Origin: a virus
Taxonomy: Duplodnaviria; Heunggongvirae; Uroviricota; Caudoviricetes
Strand: one strand, 5' to 3'
Length of the DNA: 9,064 nt
Virus record (IMG/VR): IMGVR_UViG_2872180393_000009
Both the position numbers and the translations under genes were made by a program. Shown in pieces: positions 304 to 9,064 of this stretch. The notes under the pieces were generated by a model. It was given only the letters and a program-made list of their open reading frames with translations, was not told where the DNA came from and did no database searches. The first letter of the stretch is position 1, and each line of letters begins with the position of its first letter.

Positions 304-367
304 TATTAGCTCCTTCTGATGCCATTCTATTTCAGGAAGGAGTGTCCGTTAAACTCAGGCTACCTCA
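1..367 (-). mobile_element. IS600 (IS3 family), partial copy in inverted orientation; left inverted repeat ends at 367, rest of element lies beyond the window start
   Basis: Positions 301-367 are the reverse complement of 6768-6834 (left end and orfA start of the complete copy) with one mismatch. The orfA product is identical to the 6832-7134 product except one residue (D vs G). Confidence 0.85.
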
Positions 368-600
368 ACGAAGTTGGCGTTCAGTTTGGCAGCGCGGCTG
401 AAATGGCTATTTTGCAGGAAATTATCAACGCCAGGTACGAAAGTATCTTGCCCACCATTCTGATCAGTAACCTCTCACCGGAAGAGTTGTGGGCGTTCAT
501 CAGTCCCCGAATTGCCGACAGGATCACAGACGGGGGACGCAACTGGTTGTCGTTTAACTGGCCCAGTTACCGTTCTCGTATCAGAGGTGTGGCTGCATGA
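368..600 (+). pseudogene. DnaC-like helicase loader, C-terminal remnant (about 77 codons) truncated at its 5' side by the IS600 end
   Basis: Translation NEVGVQ...LSFNWPSYRSRIRGVAA matches the C-terminus of E. coli DnaC (DEIGVQ...FNWDSYRSRVTGKEY, recalled from memory). The ORF is only open upstream because it runs into the IS inverted repeat. The stop overlaps the next gene's start (ATGA, 597-600). Confidence 0.75.
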
Positions 601-1826
601 CAACTCCAGTATGGCGTAACGATGACCTTGAAGGCGCTGTCATCGGCGCGTTCTTTCTGCGCGGAGCAGATCCTGAAGTGATGGATATTCTGGCCACACT
701 ACCGGCGGACGTTTTTTCTGTACGACCGTACCGGGATATCTACACAGGCATCTGCAGACAGGCCCGTGTGTCCGGCGTGATTGATCCTGTGCTGTTGTGC
801 AATGAGATGCCAGAACTTGCCCCGGTGATTACTGATACCGGGCGTAAAACCTGGGTGAAGTCATCTCTGGAACACTATGTTGCAGCACTGCGACGCAATG
901 CCGCACTGCGTGATGCAGAAAAAACACTGAACGAGGCATTACAGAAATTACGCGATGCGCATACCTGTGAAGCAGCTGAAGATGCTCTTAAGGATGCACA
1001 GAACATGATGGCCTCATTGTCGACGGAAAAGGGCGTTATTCAGTCGGTACATATTGATGATGTGCTTCCGGAGGTGGTTGAGCGTGTTGAATGCCGGAAT
1101 CAGGGACTGGAGAAATCCAGGACGTTGATGACCGGTATTGATGAACTGGACGCAAAAACAGGCGGCATGGAGCCCGGCGACCTGGTATTTATTGCGGCTC
1201 GTCCTTCGATGGGGAAAACCGAACTTGCGCTGGACATCATCGACAAGGTGACTGAGCAGGGGCATGGTGTGCTTCTGTTCACCATGGAGATGGCGAACAT
1301 CCAGATTGGTGAACGTATGGTGTCTGAGGCTGGAGGGATGCCAGTATCACGCCTGAAATCTGTGGCTCACTTTGAAGATGAAGACTGGGCGCGTTTCTCA
1401 CAAGGGGTGGGGCGGATGACCGGGCGCAATATCTGGATGGTGGACCAGGCGAACCTGACCATTGATGAGATATGCGCAACAACGAAACACCATCTGATTA
1501 AACATCCGGAAACGGCGCTGGTGGTGGTTGATTATCTCGGGCTGAAAAATTCCGGAGAAATAGAGGCGGATGCAGACATCATTCTGATGCTTTACAGGGA
1601 TGAAGTGTACAACCCGGATACACAGGCCACAGGCATAGCAGAAATTAATATCACGAAACAACGTAACGGTTCTCTGGGGACGATTTACCGGCGTTTTTAT
1701 AACGGACATTTTCTGCCTGTGGACCAGGAAAGCGCACAGGTTCTTTCCACCCCAATGCGGCAGCCCCAGCCGCGCAGATACAGCAATACACGTACCGACA
1801 GCAGTAAGATGGAGCGTTTCTTTTGA
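597..1826 (+). CDS. DnaB-family replicative helicase (prophage-encoded), apparently lacking the H3/H4 motif region
   Basis: 409-aa ORF with Walker A AARPSMGKT, Walker B-like VVVDYL and the conserved EDEDWAR, LYRDEVY and GIAEI..KQRNG blocks found in E. coli DnaB. About 50 residues between DYL and EIEADAD seem to be absent relative to DnaB. Confidence 0.85.
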   Translation: MTTPVWRNDDLEGAVIGAFFLRGADPEVMDILATLPADVFSVRPYRDIYTGICRQARVSGVIDPVLLCNEMPELAPVITDTGRKTWVKSSLEHYVAALRRNAALRDAEKTLNEALQKLRDAHTCEAAEDALKDAQNMMASLSTEKGVIQSVHIDDVLPEVVERVECRNQGLEKSRTLMTGIDELDAKTGGMEPGDLVFIAARPSMGKTELALDIIDKVTEQGHGVLLFTMEMANIQIGERMVSEAGGMPVSRLKSVAHFEDEDWARFSQGVGRMTGRNIWMVDQANLTIDEICATTKHHLIKHPETALVVVDYLGLKNSGEIEADADIILMLYRDEVYNPDTQATGIAEINITKQRNGSLGTIYRRFYNGHFLPVDQESAQVLSTPMRQPQPRRYSNTRTDSSKMERFF

Positions 1827-1837
1827 ACAACCAGACA

Positions 1838-2080
1838 ATGACTTTTACCCCTGAACAATTGCGTAAACACGCGCAGGAAATGTTGCGACAGGCGGAACAA
1901 CTGGAAAAAACAGGTGTAACAAAAGATGCCATTCGTCGGGATATGGTGCCAGCGCTCAGGGAACTGATGCAGGCGAAACATCGCGCACAAAAAGCGGTGG
2001 ATGAGCTCGTTGATTGTGTGGCAGAGCTGGAAACCAAAGTTGGAAAGTTTGAAAAAATGGTGCAGGAGGTGCTGCGCTGA
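1838..2080 (+). CDS. Hypothetical small phage protein (about 80 aa, charged, probably helical), nin-region position
   Basis: ORF MTFTPEQLRKHAQEMLRQAEQLEK..., tightly packed between the helicase stop (1824-1826) and the rusA start (TGATG overlap at 2078-2082). No clear Shine-Dalgarno; start could instead be TTG at 1823. No family recognised. Confidence 0.5.
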   Translation: MTFTPEQLRKHAQEMLRQAEQLEKTGVTKDAIRRDMVPALRELMQAKHRAQKAVDELVDCVAELETKVGKFEKMVQEVLR

Positions 2081-2451
2081 TGCGCCATGAGTTTATTTTA
2101 CCTTATCCGCCGACGGTGAATACTTACTGGCGACGTCGTGGCTGCACATATTTTGTATCAAAAGTTGGTGAGCGTTATCGCCGTGATGTGACGCTAATTG
2201 TTCGCCAGCAGCGGCTGAAATTAAACCTGTCCGGAAGGCTGGCGATAAAGATTATTGCAGAGCCACCGGATAAGCGCCGTCGTGACCTGGACAATATCCT
2301 GAAAGCACCACTGGATGCGCTGACGCATGCCGGACTACTCATAGACGACGAGCAGTTTGATGAAATCAATATTGTGCGCGGTCAGCTCGTTCTTGGTGGG
2401 CGACTGGGCGTGAAGATTTACGAAATCACAGGTGATAACGATGGCGCGTGA
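2080..2451 (+). CDS. rusA: RusA-family Holliday junction resolvase
   Basis: 123-aa ORF with [10 protein letters not shown], matching the RusA catalytic region (PDRRRRDLDN in E. coli RusA, from memory). Typical position between replication genes and Q in lambdoid phages. Confidence 0.9.
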
Positions 2452-2827
2452 TATTCAGCAGGTTATGGAACGGTGGGGGGCTTGGGCTGCAAACACTCAT
2501 GAAGATGTATCCTGGGCGTCGATCGCTGCTGGTTTTAAAGGGTTAATTCCGTCGAAAGTGAAATCACGCCCTCAGTGTTCTGATGATGATGCAATGATAA
2601 TTTGTGGCTGTATGGCCCGGTTGAACAAGAAAAATCAGGATTTGCACGATTTGCTGGTGGATTATTACGTAGGTGGAATGACTTTTATGAGTCTGGCACG
2701 GAAACATGGGTGTTCGGATACCTGTATTGGCAAGCGCCTGCAGAAAGCGGAAGGGGTTATTGATGGCATGTTGATGATGCTTGATATCAGGCTGGAGATG
2801 GACAGATACGTAGAACGAATTATGTAG
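2441..2827 (+). CDS. Q: Late-gene antiterminator Q (short QuuD/DLP12-type family)
   Basis: Translation [23 protein letters not shown]...[18 protein letters not shown]...[23 protein letters not shown] resembles my recollection of the ~127-aa DLP12 QuuD antiterminator. ATG at 2441 overlaps the rusA stop by 11 nt; the ORF track's GTG at 2432 is less likely. Confidence 0.8.
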
Positions 2828-2831
2828 GTGC

Positions 2832-2861
2832 TTGACCAGACACATTGTCCGGGGCTATATT
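2832..2861 (+). promoter_or_regulatory. Candidate late promoter pR' (sigma70-like TTGACC-N17/18-CTATAT/TATATT)
   Basis: TTGACC at 2832-2837 and a TATAAT-like hexamer at 2855-2861, starting 5 nt after the Q stop codon, the canonical location of pR' in lambdoid phages. Confidence 0.4.
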
Positions 2862-2922
2862 CCTCACGCGCCAGCAAAATCTGGCGTCGGGATTGGAACC
2901 CCGGATAGAGACCGCGACAGAC

Positions 2923-2945
2923 ACACGCCGCGAGCGTGTTTTTTA
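2923..2945 (+). terminator. Candidate tR'-like intrinsic terminator
   Basis: 6-bp stem ACACGC/GCGTGT (2923-2928 / 2934-2939) with a 5-nt loop, followed by a T-run (2939-2945), about 60-80 nt downstream of the candidate pR'. Confidence 0.4.
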
Positions 2946-3307
2946 TTGTCGTATGCACGCGCACATCTGAATTATGGTGGGGCGCATGGGGGAGCTGAAA
3001 AGCTCGCCGGTCGGTTTCCCGGTAGTTCCAACCCTGTGCGTCTCACCACCCGATGATTGGAACCTGACGGTGTTGACAGTTTCAGGTTTGCAGTTTACAT
3101 TTCCCCGCGGTGCTCAAAACACCTCGAAAGCGGTATCCACACCCGATAGCCATGTGGTTTTTTTGTGTCCAGAATTCTTGGTTTATGACCGGGTGTGCGG
3201 CTAATACAATACCAGCAATGGAAATACGCCCGCCGACTTTCGACGGTTTTGAGCGCCCGGTCACCCTCTCAAAAGGGGTAAATCAAAATATTCGAAAGGA
3301 CATGTCT

Positions 3308-3871
3308 ATGAATCGCACGTCTATTGAAAAACTCCCGTCACTTACGCATAACCATCTTCCTGTCATGACAACAGAGCTGCTGGCTGATTTGTACGGAACA
3401 GAGCGCCAGCGTTTGACAAACAATTTCAATCGAAACAAAGAACGGTTTATAGAAGGTAAACATTTTTTCCTGATAGAAGGTGATGCGTTACGAGAGTTGA
3501 AGAACGAAAACTCTTTAAGAGTTTCTGTGAAAATTGCCCGTAACGTTCGCTCCCTCATCCTCTGGACAGAACGTGGCGCAGCCCGTCACGCCAAAATGCT
3601 CGAAACCGATCAGGCGTGGGAAGTGTTCGAAAAACTGGAAGACTGTTATTTCAACCAGAAACAGCCACCAGCGGCACAAAACACATCTATCGAAAATGAT
3701 GGATGCGCATTACTGAGCCACTTCGATAAACACGGTCAGGTTGAGTTCACGGAAAAGGTACCCGCCGATGCGATGGTATGTACTCTGGAACGGTTTAAAT
3801 TTTATCTGGAGCAACACGGGTGGATCGTTGCCCGTAAAGAGCAACTGGTGGAGCGGTTGATGCGGTTTTAA
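3308..3871 (+). CDS. ORF6N-domain (antirepressor-like DNA-binding) protein with an uncharacterised C-terminal half
   Basis: ATG at 3308 has AAGGA 7 nt upstream. The N-terminal segment PVMTTELLADLYGTERQRLTNNFNRNKERFIEGKHFF...WTERGAARHAKMLETDQAWEVF fits my recollection of the ORF6N domain consensus. The ORF track's upstream extension from 3110 has no RBS and non-protein-like composition. Confidence 0.6.
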   Translation: MNRTSIEKLPSLTHNHLPVMTTELLADLYGTERQRLTNNFNRNKERFIEGKHFFLIEGDALRELKNENSLRVSVKIARNVRSLILWTERGAARHAKMLETDQAWEVFEKLEDCYFNQKQPPAAQNTSIENDGCALLSHFDKHGQVEFTEKVPADAMVCTLERFKFYLEQHGWIVARKEQLVERLMRF

Positions 3872-3984
3872 AAATTTTTTCCGAAAACTTTACGATCGTA
3901 AAAAGTTGAATATCCTGTTAAGAGTGGTTACTACGCCACACAGAAACGGCACAGGACGTTAAACGTGCTGGTGGTCAGATGAGT

Positions 3985-4013
3985 TTGCAGATGTGATGAC
4001 ATATGGTTATTAT
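3985..4013 (+). promoter_or_regulatory. Candidate sigma70 promoter for the tRNA array (TTGCAG-N17-TATTAT)
   Basis: TTGCAG at 3985-3990 and TATTAT at 4008-4013 with a 17-nt spacer, about 10 nt upstream of the first tRNA 5' end. Confidence 0.35.
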
Positions 4014-4022
4014 TCTGCCTCC

Positions 4023-4099
4023 GGCCCTTTAGCTCAGTTGGTCAGAGCGAGCGACTCATAATCGCCAGGTCGCTGGTTCAAGTCCAGCAAGGGCCACCA
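4023..4099 (+). tRNA. tRNA with CAU anticodon, most likely tRNA-Ile2 (ileX/ileZ-like) rather than tRNA-Met
   Basis: Cloverleaf read by eye: acceptor GGCCCTT/AAGGGCC, D-arm AGCTCAGTTGG, anticodon loop CTCATAA, T-arm GGTTCAAGTCC, 3' CCA encoded. Close to E. coli ileX as I recall it, including C4-G69 and C5-G68. Confidence 0.85.
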
Positions 4100-4100
4100 A

Positions 4101-4177
4101 CCACCACTAGCTCATCCGGATAGAGCATCAACCTTCTAAGTTGACGGTGCGAGGTTCGAGTCCTCGGTGGTGGGCCA
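4101..4177 (+). tRNA. tRNA-Arg (anticodon UCU, decodes AGA)
   Basis: Acceptor CCACCAC/GTGGTGG (unusual C1-G72), D-arm TAGCTCATCCGGATAGAGC, anticodon loop CTTCTAA, T-arm GAGGTTCGAGTCCTC, encoded CCA. Starts 1 nt after the previous tRNA. Confidence 0.8.
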
Positions 4178-4179
4178 GC

Positions 4180-4255
<76 letters not shown>

Positions 4256-4258
4256 TAT

Positions 4259-4333
<75 letters not shown>

Positions 4334-4946
4334 GCGAGATTTGAGACGAAGGTTGTTATTTGCACTGACACAATATTGTGTGGGAATGTCTGACTCCTTA
4401 CCATCTCCTGTTCTGTGATGTTGTTTTGTTGCAGTTCCAGTGCTCTTTTTTCAGCACCAGAATGGTGCATTGTCGGTCAGGTTACGTAGTGAACCTCTGG
4501 CAGGGGACTGATGATTCATCATTCTGGTGTTGTAAATATCTCTTCGGACAACTTACAAAATATTCTAAGCAAACCCCGGGAACACACTCTTAACTGCCTT
4601 GGTTGGCGGTTTTTTGTACAGTGCTCGGTATGTGTGAGCTGGAAATCAGATTTTGCATGGACTGGAATCATGCTGTTATTTAGGGGCGAAGAACTGGCTT
4701 TTTCTTCCGCCTTCTCACCAGTAATGATTAGAAAAATAATGAAATGCCCCCTCCGGGGAGGAGGACCGTAGAAAAAAGGACCCGCCAGCAAAAACATTGG
4801 GGATGAACAGCTTTCGCTACTCAGATTGCTGGCGGGTAAAGTTCCTCATGAATTAAGAATGCTACGCGATCTTTTTTAATGGAAATGAAAATTATTGTCA
4901 ATTAGACGTGCGTGTTTTTTCATACAATATTGGTAAAGGTGATTCA

Positions 4947-4980
4947 GGCCATCAGAGTTTTGCTGATGGCCTTTTTTCTT
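4947..4980 (+). terminator. Strong rho-independent terminator upstream of the holin gene
   Basis: Perfect 9-bp stem GGCCATCAG/CTGATGGCC (4947-4955 / 4963-4971), 7-nt loop, followed by TTTTTTCTT (4972-4980). Confidence 0.6.
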
Positions 4981-5013
4981 TCCGATAGCACAGGTCTGTC
5001 GGGGGGGCGGGAT

Positions 5014-5229
5014 ATGTATCAGATGGAAAAAATATCAACAGGCATTGCCTACGGCACCTCCGCCGGCAGTGCCGGCTACTGGTTTTTGCAGTGGTTGGAT
5101 CAGGTCAGTCCGTCACAGTGGGCTGCGATTGGTGTGCTGGGAAGTCTGCTTCTGGGGCTTCTGACTTATCTGACGAATCTGTATTTCAAAATAAGAGAAG
5201 ATAAGCGTAAGGCTGCGAGAGGTGAATAA
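5014..5229 (+). CDS. S: Class II holin / pinholin, phage 21 S-like, with dual-start motif (Met1 at 5014, Met4 at 5023)
   Basis: 71-aa product [71 protein letters not shown] is near-identical to my recollection of phage 21 S. G-rich Shine-Dalgarno-like stretch upstream; stop overlaps the endolysin start (TAATG). Confidence 0.85.
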
Positions 5230-5726
5230 TGTCGCCATCATTACGCAAGGCTGTTGCAGTTGCTATTGGTGGCGGGGCTGTTGCTATAGCATCTGTGTTA
5301 ATCACTGGCCCAGGTGGTAACGATGGTCTGGAAGGTGTCAGCTACATACCATACAAAGATATCATTGGTGTATGGACTGTATGTCACGGACACACCGGAA
5401 AAGACATCATGCCTGGTAAAACGTATACCGAAGCAGAATGCAAAGCTCTCCTGAATAAAGACCTTGCCACTGTCGCCAGACAAATTAACCCGTACATCAA
5501 AGTCGATATACCGGAAACAACGCGCGGCGCTCTTTACTCGTTCGTTTACAACGTGGGCGCTGGCAATTTCAGAACATCGACGCTTCTTCGCAAAATAAAC
5601 CAGGGCGATATCAAAGGCGCATGTGACCAGCTACGTCGCTGGACATATGCTGGCGGTAAGCAATGGAAAGGGCTGATGACCCGTCGTGAGATTGAGCGTG
5701 AAGTCTGTTTGTGGGGGCTGCAATGA
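5229..5726 (+). CDS. R: SAR (signal-anchor-release) endolysin, phage 21 R-like lysozyme
   Basis: 165-aa product with an N-terminal Gly/Ala-rich SAR helix ([20 protein letters not shown]) and a T4-lysozyme-like catalytic region ([22 protein letters not shown]). Near-identical to phage 21 R as recalled. Confidence 0.9.
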
Positions 5727-6187
5727 GCAGAGTCACCGCGATTATCTCCGCTCTGGTTATCTGCATCATCGTCTGCCTGTCATGGGCTGTTAATCATTAC
5801 CGTGATAACGCCATTACCTACAAAGAGCAGCGCGACAAAAACGCAAGAGAACTGAAGCTGGCGAACGCAACCATTACTGACATGCAGCAGAGACAGCGTG
5901 ATGTTAATGCACTCGATGCTAAATACACGAAGGAGTTAGCTGATGCGAAAGCTGAAAATGAAACTCTGCGCGCTGATGTTGCCGCTGGTCGTCGTCGGTT
6001 GCACATCAAAGCAGTCTGTCAGTCAGTGCGTGAAGCCACCACCGCCTCCGGCGTGGATAATGCAACCAGCCCCCGACTGGCAGACACCGCTGAACGGGAT
6101 TATTTCACCCTCAGAGAGCGGCTGATGACGATGCAGATGCAACTGGAAGGGGCACAGGAGTATATCCGCACTCAGTGCATTAAGTAG
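5723..6187 (+). CDS. Rz: Rz i-spanin (inner membrane spanin subunit)
   Basis: [34 protein letters not shown]... is highly similar to lambda Rz as recalled. ATG at 5723 overlaps the endolysin stop (ATGA). Confidence 0.9.
5943..6125 (+). CDS. Rz1: Rz1 o-spanin (outer membrane lipoprotein), embedded in the +1 frame of Rz
   Basis: 60-aa [45 protein letters not shown]... with lipobox VVGC and a proline-rich segment, similar to lambda Rz1 as recalled. Confidence 0.85.
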
Positions 6188-6229
6188 CCTTTTTATCGTG
6201 GTAAACATTTCGCAGGGTATGAGGTATTT

Positions 6230-6580
6230 ATGCCATCACTAATCCCACGTGCCTGCCGTAAGCGTGGATGTGCAGGTACAACCACAGACAGTTCGGGTTA
6301 CTGCGATAAACATCGCGGTGAAGGCTGGGTGCAGCACCAGCGCGGACTGAGCCGCCACCAGCGTGGCTATGGCTCAAAATGGACGGTGATTCGTGCCCGT
6401 ATTCTGAAGCGCGATAAAGGTCTGTGTCAGTTGTGTCTGCGTGTCGGTGTGGTGAGCGAGGCGAAAACCGTCGACCACATCATCCCGAAAGCGCATGGCG
6501 GAACAGACGCAGACAGCAACCTGCAGAGTCTGTGCTGGCCCTGCCATAAAGCGAAAACAGCGCGCGAACGAATCAGGTGA
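6230..6580 (+). CDS. HNH endonuclease (phage packaging-associated type)
   Basis: 116-aa ORF with Cys pairs (CRKRGC, CQLC, CWPC) and the HNH core DHIIPKAHGGTDADSNLQSLCWPCH. GAGG Shine-Dalgarno 5 nt upstream. Sits just before the putative cos/terS region as in HK97-like phages. Confidence 0.8.
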   Translation: MPSLIPRACRKRGCAGTTTDSSGYCDKHRGEGWVQHQRGLSRHQRGYGSKWTVIRARILKRDKGLCQLCLRVGVVSEAKTVDHIIPKAHGGTDADSNLQSLCWPCHKAKTARERIR

Positions 6581-6602
6581 TAATTATTCTCACTTGTAGG
6601 GA

Positions 6603-6651
6603 GGGGCGGGGCAAATCCCTGTGACCTGACGTCTTCCGGACTGCCCGCCCC
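6603..6651. repeat. GC-rich dyad GGGGCGGG ... CCCGCCCC with 33-nt spacer; candidate cos/packaging recognition element
   Basis: 8-bp perfect inverted repeat at 6603-6610 and 6644-6651, located between the HNH gene and the terS start. Assignment as cos is positional inference only. Confidence 0.3.
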
Positions 6652-6695
6652 GTCAAATTTTTACACCCGCGAAATTAAAAATTTCAGGATTTGAC

Positions 6696-6767
6696 ATGTC
6701 AGGAAAATCTGTTGCACCCGGAAGGGGAAGAAAGCCGAAGCCGACTACCCGTAAGGAGCTGGCAGGC
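6696..6767 (+). pseudogene. Terminase small subunit (P27-family-like) N-terminal 24 codons, truncated by the IS600 insertion
   Basis: ATG at 6696 encodes MSGKSVAPGRGRKPKPTTRKELAG, ending exactly at the IS600 left inverted repeat, whose first triplet TGA gives an immediate stop. The GRGRKPKPT motif is typical of P27-type TerS N-termini as recalled. Confidence 0.5.
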
Positions 6768-6831
6768 TGAGGTAGCCTGAGTTTAACGGACACTCCTTCC
6801 TGAAATAGAATGGCATCAGAAGAAGCTAATA

Positions 6832-7134
6832 ATGAGCAGAAAAACCCAACGTTACTCTAAAGAGTTCAAAGCCGAAGCTGTCAGAACGGTTCTTGAAAAT
6901 CAACTTTCGATCAGTGAAGGCGCTTCCCGATTATCCCTTCCTGAAGGCACTTTAGGACAATGGGTTACCGCCGCCAGAAAAGGGCTCGGTACTCCTGGTT
7001 CCCGCACGGTGGCTGAACTGGAATCTGAAATTCTGCAACTGCGTAAGGCGTTAAATGAAGCTCGCCTTGAGCGAGATATATTAAAAAAAGCAACAGCGTA
7101 TTTTGCACAGGAGTCGCTGAAAAATACGCGTTAA
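6832..7134 (+). CDS. IS600 OrfA
   Basis: 100-aa ORF MSRKTQRYSKEFKAEAVRTVLENQLSISEGASRLSLPEG..., with an HTH-like N-terminus and a leucine-zipper-like C-terminus typical of IS3-family OrfA. Confidence 0.9.
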   Translation: MSRKTQRYSKEFKAEAVRTVLENQLSISEGASRLSLPEGTLGQWVTAARKGLGTPGSRTVAELESEILQLRKALNEARLERDILKKATAYFAQESLKNTR

Positions 7135-7169
7135 TCGAACAATGGCGACAACAATTTCCCATTGAAGCG

Positions 7170-7988
7170 ATGTGTCAGGTATTTGGTGTATCCAGGAGCG
7201 GTTATTACAACCGGGTACAGCATGAACCCTCAGACAGAAAACAAAGTGATGAGCGGCTAAAACTGGAGATTAAGGTGGCACATATCCGCACTCGCGAAAC
7301 ATATGGAACCCGGCGGCTCCAGACGGAGCTGGCAGAGAATGGCATCATCGTTGGTCGTGACCGACTGGCACGTCTTCGTAAGGAGCTAAGGCTACGCTGT
7401 AAGCAGAAACGCAAGTTCAGAGCGACTACGAACCCGAACCACAATCTGCCAGTTGCGCCAAATCTGCTGAACCAGACGTTCGCTCCTACAGCACCAAATC
7501 AGGTCTGGGTGGCGGACCTGACGTATGTTGCCACACAGGAGGGATGGTTGTACCTCGCTGGCATCAAAGATGTTTATACGTGCGAAATTGTCGGCTACGC
7601 CATGGGAGAGCGCATGACAAAAGAGCTGACAGGTAAAGCCCTGTTTATGGCGCTCAGGAGCCAGCGCCCACCTGCCGGGCTAATCCACCACTCTGATCGA
7701 GGTTCACAGTACTGCGCATACGATTACCGGGTCATACAGGAGCAGTTTGGTCTGAAAACATCAATGTCGCGTAAAGGTAACTGTTACGACAACGCTCCGA
7801 TGGAAAGCTTCTGGGGAACGCTGAAAAATGAGAGCCTGAGCCACTATCGTTTTAATAACCGGGATGAAGCCATCTCAGTAATACGGGAATACATTGAGAT
7901 TTTCTACAATCGTCAGCGTCGTCACTCTCGTCTGGGGAATATCTCCCCGGCAGCCTTCAGGGAAAAATATCATCAGATGGCTGCTTAA
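7170..7988 (+). CDS. IS600 OrfB (transposase catalytic DDE domain), normally expressed as an OrfAB fusion by -1 frameshifting
   Basis: 272-aa ORF containing DDE-region motifs (WVADLTYV, HHSDRGSQY, CYDNAPMESFWGTLKNE). The orfB frame is open upstream from the A AAA AAA G slippery run at 7083-7090 inside orfA. Confidence 0.9.
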   Translation: MCQVFGVSRSGYYNRVQHEPSDRKQSDERLKLEIKVAHIRTRETYGTRRLQTELAENGIIVGRDRLARLRKELRLRCKQKRKFRATTNPNHNLPVAPNLLNQTFAPTAPNQVWVADLTYVATQEGWLYLAGIKDVYTCEIVGYAMGERMTKELTGKALFMALRSQRPPAGLIHHSDRGSQYCAYDYRVIQEQFGLKTSMSRKGNCYDNAPMESFWGTLKNESLSHYRFNNRDEAISVIREYIEIFYNRQRRHSRLGNISPAAFREKYHQMAA

Positions 7989-8098
7989 AAAAAGAACAAA
8001 TGGTAGTATCCGCTATTGCCAGTACACCTCAAAGGGGTTCATGTATTAAAAGTCGACGGAGTTAAAGAACGTTGGGTCGACTTAATGGAGATTTCAAA

Positions 8099-9064
8099 AT
8101 GGGCAAGAAAGAACAAGGATCATTACCTCTCCCAAGAGGAGTAACTATTCGTCAATACAAGAATTGCTCTACATTAGTTGTAACCTTCACATATAAAGGG
8201 GTTCTTTGCAGAGAACCCTTACCAAGGCTGGAAGCTAACGCAAAGGGGATTAAGTATGCAGAGCGACTTCTCGGAGAAATAAAAAACCAAATCTGTGATG
8301 ATTCATTCGATTTTTCAAAATACTTTCCAAACTCCAGGAAGTTAGCATTATTTGGAATGGTAAAGAAGAATAAAAGTGTGAGAGATTACCTAGATGAATA
8401 TCTGGAAATTTGCAAAAACAGAAAGTTATCTCCTTCAACAATAAATGGATATGAAAAATGCGTATCTGCATTATCGGAACTACATAAGCTACATGTCGTT
8501 GACCTGACACCAGCAATATTAAAAAAATGGATTTCAAGAAGAACAACAAAACTTAAGACCATAAGAAACAATCTGTCATTTTTAAGAAGCGCAGTAGATG
8601 AAGCGGTCACTGACGGACTTATAACGATAAATCCTGTAAAACTGGTTAGTGCAAGTAGATACCATGCGGTTAACCATACAGCCAATGCTGATGATTATGA
8701 AGTGGATCCCTTCACGCCAGCAGAGGCAACAGCTATCTACAACGCCTGTCTCTATCAGGAATGGAGAAATCTTTTTTGTTTCGCATTCAATACAGGCCTT
8801 CGAAGCTCAGAATTATGTGCATTGCGTTGGTCTGATATTGATTTTATTGGGCATACCGTTCACGTACAGGTCGCTTCTGTCGTTGGTGTAATAAAAGGAA
8901 CCAAAACAAAAGCAGGGACCAGAAAAGTTGAATTAAACAATGAAGCCATAATGGCATTGCAGTCCCAGAAATCATTTACGATGATGAGAAGTGATTTTGT
9001 ATTCAGTGATCCAAAAACACGCAAGCCGTGGGCTAATTCAGCTGCGATTCGCAAGAAAGCCTGA
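8099..9064 (+). CDS. int: Tyrosine recombinase / phage integrase, probably C-terminally truncated (likely pseudogene)
   Basis: ATG at 8099 with GGAG 8 nt upstream. N-terminal arm-binding-like segment (LPRGVTIRQY...TFTYKGVLCREPLP), box I arginine (FNTGLRSSELCALRWSDIDF) and the KGTKTKAGTRKVEL hairpin are present. The ORF stops 17 aa after FVFSDP, before the expected HxxR and catalytic Tyr. AT-rich relative to the rest of the window. Confidence 0.7.
   Translation: MGKKEQGSLPLPRGVTIRQYKNCSTLVVTFTYKGVLCREPLPRLEANAKGIKYAERLLGEIKNQICDDSFDFSKYFPNSRKLALFGMVKKNKSVRDYLDEYLEICKNRKLSPSTINGYEKCVSALSELHKLHVVDLTPAILKKWISRRTTKLKTIRNNLSFLRSAVDEAVTDGLITINPVKLVSASRYHAVNHTANADDYEVDPFTPAEATAIYNACLYQEWRNLFCFAFNTGLRSSELCALRWSDIDFIGHTVHVQVASVVGVIKGTKTKAGTRKVELNNEAIMALQSQKSFTMMRSDFVFSDPKTRKPWANSAAIRKKA

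Follow-up and report, generated by a model that had tools for sequence, protein, structure and literature searches.

An in-frame 162-bp deletion removes motif H3 from a phage DnaB-family helicase gene in an IS600-bounded prophage remnant of Shigella boydii

Results

The DNA under study is a stretch of 9,064 nucleotides, referred to here as the window, which is filed as IMG/VR virus record IMGVR_UViG_2872180393_000009 and is an exact substring of chromosome CP026846.1. It contains a 6.4-kb prophage remnant (368-6767) bounded by two inverted copies of IS600. The left end of copy A occupies 1-367 on the minus strand; this copy runs about 900 bp beyond the window, truncates a helicase-loader gene and replaces all of the upstream phage DNA. 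Copy B (1264 bp, 6768-8031, plus strand) lies directly after an HNH gene and forms the right boundary of the remnant. The two copies are 99.6% identical. Copy B is 99.2% identical to the annotated IS600 of NZ_CP065615.1, encodes a 100-aa orfA and a 272-aa orfB product, and has the termini TGAGGTAGCC...CACCTCA, as expected of IS600 (IS3 family). No 3-bp target duplication was found for either copy in any pairing, including those expected after inversion between the copies. This absence suggests that deletions or rearrangements next to the elements have taken place, and not simple insertions.

All phage genes in the remnant are on the plus strand. The first is the 3′ end of a DnaC-like helicase-loader gene (368-600), which retains the C-terminal 77 of 252 codons and has lost Walker A. 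Sixteen codons from the IS600 terminal repeat (319-366) are in frame with these last 77 loader codons and together with them make up a hybrid ORF (319-600), the stop codon of which overlaps the ATG of the helicase gene (ATGA, 597-600). If transcription entered from the IS end, the hybrid ORF could in principle be coupled translationally to the helicase gene. A promoter scan of positions 1-2200 returned 2 consensus matches against 1.5 expected by chance. The helicase gene itself (597-1826) has an intact start and is still open and complete, encoding 409 aa in place of the 463 aa of its full-length relatives. It is followed by orf85 (1823-2080), rusA (2080-2451) and the gene for the antiterminator Q (2441-2827). 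At position 2393, in codon 105 of rusA, the window has CTT (Leu) and contig L003 has CCT (Pro); the first difference from the window in five other S. boydii contigs is at the same position. This non-synonymous SNP in the gene for the RusA resolvase is strain-specific.

Farther downstream, a gene for an ORF6N-domain protein (KilA-N/antirepressor-like) is called at 3308-3871 with 187 aa in the public record; a mechanically delimited ORF with a GTG start (3110-3871, 253 aa) is longer than this called gene. Four tRNA genes, Met (CAT), Arg (TCT), Thr (TGT) and Gly (TCC), are located at 4023-4333, downstream of Q and the ORF6N gene. The stretch that contains them (3944-4334) is 99% identical to a region of Escherichia coli FDAARGOS_943, where the first of the tRNAs is annotated as tRNA-Ile; its CAT anticodon may be read as Ile after lysidine modification. 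The lysis genes are next, with a phage-21-type holin gene that ends at 5229, a lysozyme gene (5229-5726) and Rz/Rz1 (5711-6187 and 5943-6125), and the HNH endonuclease gene (6230-6580) is last. The stretch between the tRNA cluster and the holin holds ordinary lambdoid tRNA and holin neighbours, and no toxin or other cargo gene was detected after the tRNA cluster in the window.

No repressor, origin, initiator or structural/morphogenesis gene is present in 368-6767. No DNA of phage origin lies upstream of window position 368 or in the interval from the HNH gene to IS600 copy B, and host metabolic genes lie beyond copy A. Just outside copy B, at 8099-9064, is a gene for a tyrosine recombinase (phage integrase) with an Arm-DNA-binding domain, which probably belongs to another integrated element than the lambdoid remnant. 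Judged by its gene content, the remnant would not qualify as a functional lambdoid (phiP27-type) prophage, as its replication module, immunity region and morphogenesis genes are not intact. The prophage is defunct regardless of any lesion in the helicase gene.

The 409-aa protein matches the Pfam DnaB N-terminal domain at 23.9 bits (cut-off 23) and DnaB_C at 158 bits (cut-off 27). The DnaB_C alignment falls into two stretches, the better of which ends at profile position 140 of 255. The phiP27 L19 protein gives a single DnaB_C stretch from position 2 to 247 of 255 with 246 bits. The ORF is assigned by homology to the DnaB family (SF4) of hexameric replicative helicases, and its product is a phage paralogue, distinct from the host replicative helicase DnaB. 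The closest named phage system is phiP27, whose L19 "putative helicase" (CAC83537.1, 463 aa) shares 93.6% nucleotide identity with the window gene over the whole of its retained length. Equivalent helicases of 463/466 aa are found at full length in Stx1a/Stx2a-converting prophages of E. coli, and the nucleotide identity of the window gene to the full-length phage helicases compared is 92-95%. The window also shares with phiP27/Stx prophages the gene order of dnaC-like loader, helicase (with the ATGA overlap), small ORF and Q. It differs from them in the loss of helicase codons 317-370, in the cutting of the loader gene by IS600 and in five private substitutions.

Five motifs, H1, H1a, H2, H3 and H4, define the DnaB family according to the paper on the Thermus aquaticus DnaB structure (PMC1950529). 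The 409-aa protein retains Walker A (H1; ARPSMGKT, residues 201-208, aligned to ARPSMGKT of DnaB), H1a, the motif of the catalytic Glu that follows strand 2 (FTMEM, residues 228-232, aligned to FSLEM of DnaB, with E231 invariant), and Walker B (H2; VVVDYL, residues 309-314, with D312 and Y313 invariant). H4, which makes up a helix, loop and strand for DNA binding (KNSGEIEADAD, residues 317-327), is retained as well, with S319, G320, E321, D325 and D327 invariant, as part of a longer H4 stretch, KNSGEIEADADIILMLYRDE (residues 317-336), and so is the arginine-finger block (TKQRNG, residues 353-358), in which R356 is invariant. In comparison with E. coli DnaB (PDB 7T22/6BBM), H1, H1a, H2, H4 and the arginine-finger block (GKQRNG in DnaB) are conserved. 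H3 (SQLxR), which terminates a core strand, is missing from the 409-aa protein and this family motif is thus not represented. The N-terminal domain (approximately residues 1-140) is intact.

An earlier note, made from the letters of the window alone, had proposed an in-frame internal deletion of about 50 residues (about 150 bp) at 1527-1580, with loss of SQLNR (H3) and of the start of H4. We examined this by aligning the DNA with the closest full-length relative, the FDAARGOS_943 helicase gene (protein WP_197939852.1), which is 95.4% identical to the window gene overall and 100% identical around the junction. The deletion and the preservation of the frame were borne out; the size was underestimated, since exactly 162 bp (54 codons) are missing from the window. 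The gap is flanked by about 165 nt on the left and about 80 nt on the right that are 100% identical to FDAARGOS_943. With phiP27 L19 as the reference, the codons removed are 317-370 of the full-length gene. Across the junction the protein reads ...VVVDYLGL and continues directly with KNSGEIEADADIILMLYRDEVY..., the residues D312-Y313-L314-G315-L316-K317 being encoded by nucleotides 1530-1547.

The junction lies at 1542-1549 on the plus strand, inside the interval named in the earlier note, and includes an exact 4-nt microhomology, CTGA, at 1542-1545. The deletion ends carry the direct repeats CTGAtAAAA and CTGAAAAA, which are exact over CTGA and imperfect over CTGA[T]AAAA. The full-length allele reads GGG-CTGATAAAAACC...(162 bp)...GAC-CTGAAAAATTCC at its borders, and the window reads GGG-CTGAAAAATTCC. 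A 162-bp gap between short direct repeats would be the signature of slippage or of a microhomology-mediated deletion. The ORF stays open only because the length of the deletion happens to be a multiple of three.

The missing 54-residue peptide is the same in phiP27 and FDAARGOS_943. E. coli DnaB aligns with phiP27 L19 from end to end (phmmer against 7T22/6BBM, E = 3e-65), and the segment that the window protein lacks is equivalent to DnaB residues 348-402 or so, including ALSQLNR, which is H3. The lost segment holds an invariant LSQLSR (H3), a helix and a core beta-strand. The proposed loss of H3 was thus correct, and that of the start of H4 was not: only the loop before H4 is gone.

We searched for shorter forms of the helicase in several collections. 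By megablast, the gene was found in 349 of 5,426 complete E. coli genomes, and 347 of these 349 matches cover at least 80% of the query. The E. coli matches listed, 30 rows drawn from across the whole ranking, are all in two pieces with a span equal to the covered query plus 162 bp, one row being 1 bp off. The extra 162 bp are likewise carried by 24 of the 24 matching phage records, phiP27 and Stx1a/Stx2a-converting phages among them. Among the best 120 of 1204 matches in a protein search, the full-coverage homologues are all 446-466 aa long; the shorter entries cover the query only partially, and the six that were aligned are N-terminal fragments. A MAFFT alignment with 110 full-length homologues (446-466 aa, approximately 50-97% identity over aligned residues) placed exactly 54 residues in the gap for every one of the 110. 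The gap columns that are invariant in these homologues comprise LSQLSR together with R, D, L, G, S, K, P, V-E, R, K-R-P, N and D. Since the 54 residues are present in all 110 homologues and many of their columns are invariant, the gap is not a chance feature of the alignment. For the junction itself we used the 44-nt probe GGTGGTTGATTATCTCGGGCTGAAAAATTCCGGAGAAATAGAGG, with which megablast seeding is possible only where the junction exists. The 5,426 complete E. coli genomes gave no match to it, nor did 50,697 phage records; the GTDB species-representative genomes gave none to a 41-mer of the junction.

The exact 409-aa protein is attributed by its sources to Shigella boydii only. Two complete chromosomes (CP026846.1 and CP119446.1) carry its gene, as do NCBI drafts and Logan assemblies of several sequencing runs, and one Logan contig was found in 15 samples. 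The DNA of the gene is identical in all nine contigs read. In both complete chromosomes the same IS600 adjoins the loader remnant, and draft contigs end on the left at about window position 340-394, which is the IS600 boundary. This distribution indicates that the deleted allele stems from one event inherited in one clone.

Relative to seven relatives, the private substitutions of the window allele number 5 non-synonymous to 7 synonymous. The proportion is close to that in intact relatives (9:13 and 6:10, for example), and this count, which has low power, gives no indication of relaxed constraint. The private non-synonymous changes are P150S, A244E, R345T, Q388R and K398T. Two of these alter conserved positions: at least 90% of 40 sequences have A at position 244, and all close relatives compared have P at position 150.

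FDAARGOS_943 carries a parallel and independently decayed copy of the same prophage (NZ_CP065615.1, 280445-289836). This remnant too is riddled with insertion sequences (here IS110, IS66 and IS600); its loader gene is likewise truncated, the tRNA cluster is shared, and an IS600 lies close to the lysis genes. Unlike in the window, its helicase is full length (463 aa), and its loader gene is cut elsewhere by another element, ISSso6 (IS110 family), with IS66-family elements upstream. The Shigella-type IS content of FDAARGOS_943 suggests that it belongs to a Shigella-like lineage.

The consequence of the deletion for the protein was explored with AlphaFold2, using matched alignments of 39-40 sequences for the 409-aa protein and for P0031, a full-length control that shares 97% identity with it outside the gap. 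Model confidence serves here as a proxy and is no measure of stability. The 409-aa protein was modelled with a mean pLDDT of 66.8 and a pTM of 0.43, and its pLDDT fell below 50 at residues 172-206, across the linker and the greater part of the P-loop, and at 313-361, from the junction onwards. The control reached a mean pLDDT of 79.0 and a pTM of 0.59, with most of its C-terminal domain at 70-92. The N-terminal domain was modelled with equal confidence in both. In the control model the deleted stretch forms a helix (325-343), a core strand (347-351) and, after H3, a short helix (355-359). H3 lines the nucleotide pocket; if it works as it does in RecA and T7 gp4, its glutamine is a sensor of the gamma-phosphate. 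The modelling agrees with the expectation that losing a central strand and its covering helix would disrupt the RecA-like core. The structure prediction suggested in the earlier note pointed to the P-loop and the junction region as the parts that are predicted poorly in the deleted form, and together with the loss of H3 and the core strand it fits the proposal in that note that the product may be inactive. Alignment and models combined argue strongly that the 409-aa product would have lost helicase function; most likely it either folds wrongly or, at the least, does not work as a helicase.

Discussion

We consider it very probable that the gene at 597-1826 is a dead allele of the DnaB-family helicase of a phiP27-type lambdoid phage, residing in a 6.4-kb S. 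boydii prophage remnant. We propose that a single deletion occurred between the CTGA[T]AAAA direct repeats 162 bp apart, by replication slippage or by microhomology-mediated illegitimate recombination. It would have removed 54 codons in frame, and with them the helix that follows Walker B, the core beta-strand after it in the RecA-like fold and, at the end of this strand, H3 (LSQLSR). Without that segment the product can presumably assemble neither the central sheet nor a working ATP site. One IS600 has taken the ATPase half of the loader and everything upstream of it (repressor, pR and origin), and a second IS600 has replaced everything after the lysis cassette and the HNH gene. The helicase lesion is accompanied by this other damage, and the prophage either had ceased to work before the deletion or has done so since.

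The earlier note had also raised the possibility that the shortened product persists as a dominant interfering protein. According to this explanation the 409-aa protein was kept as a dominant-negative or decoy subunit that co-assembles with the helicase of an incoming phiP27-like phage or with host DnaB, or titrates the loader, and so interferes with superinfection. In its favour, the deletion has kept the frame and left a complete ORF; the protein still has its N-terminal collar domain and linker as well as Walker A, Walker B and the arginine finger; and the N-terminal domain is modelled as confidently as in the full-length control. By chance, however, one deletion in three keeps the frame, and the allele is confined to a single clonal lineage with identical DNA, with no sign of independent recurrence or selection. 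The cognate loader, the upstream control regions and all native promoters have been destroyed by IS600, no promoter stands above chance, a core strand is missing and model confidence collapses in the ATPase domain, while conserved residues have changed in the window lineage (A244E, P150S). The idea is unsupported on these grounds and we regard it as highly improbable. Our literature search on dominant-negative prophage helicases found nothing directly relevant.

A more specific form of this idea is that a chance promoter, for instance where IS600 joins the remnant, drives expression of the H3-less helicase, coupled translationally to the hybrid ORF, and that, when phiP27/Stx-type phages superinfect, their helicase or loader is poisoned through ATPase-dead mixed hexamers. 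If this were true, a domesticated prophage fragment would be serving as an anti-phage decoy in Shigella boydii, but we hold it to be slightly less probable even than the general form. About equally slim is the chance of a helicase-independent activity exerted through the N-terminal domain alone, such as primase binding. That domain is intact and confidently modelled, but the remnant offers it neither a replication origin nor an initiator to work with, and here too the allele is known as identical DNA from a single clonal lineage.

The explanations that would do away with the deletion have practically no chance of being correct. A naturally shorter subfamily in which the H3 segment is dispensable, which the earlier note offered as an alternative, has the open frame in its favour and nothing beyond; it is ruled out by the 54 residues in 110 of 110 full-length homologues, by the uniform 446-466 aa of the full-coverage homologues among the best 120 of 1204, by DNA flanks that match a full-length allele exactly and by the absence of the junction from the three collections searched, and a 409-aa form with the same gap is on record from S. 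boydii only. An assembly or sequencing artefact is ruled out by the occurrence of the identical gene in two complete chromosomes, NCBI drafts and independent Logan assemblies.

A dead helicase allele has its most direct consequence for annotation. The names derived from NCBI for the product are "replicative DNA helicase" and "DnaB-like helicase C-terminal domain-containing protein", and the gene is not labelled a pseudogene. Since a family-defining motif and a core strand are missing and the gene lies in a prophage fragment bounded by IS600, ORF 597-1826 is better annotated as a pseudogene or defective allele than as a replicative DNA helicase. The significance of the locus lies mainly here; it would gain in interest only if the protein turned out to be made and to disturb the helicases of phages or of the host. 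The deletion junction could also serve as a marker of this S. boydii lineage.

IS-driven decay of prophages in Shigella is a well-known process, and prophage decay as a general phenomenon has been described (PMC8072062). The helicase lesion is one more step in this known decay of a lambdoid prophage and is an ordinary loss of function. What it provides is a clean, datable case in which a prophage decaying within an IS-rich Shigella genome lost coding sequence in frame through a microhomology-mediated deletion.
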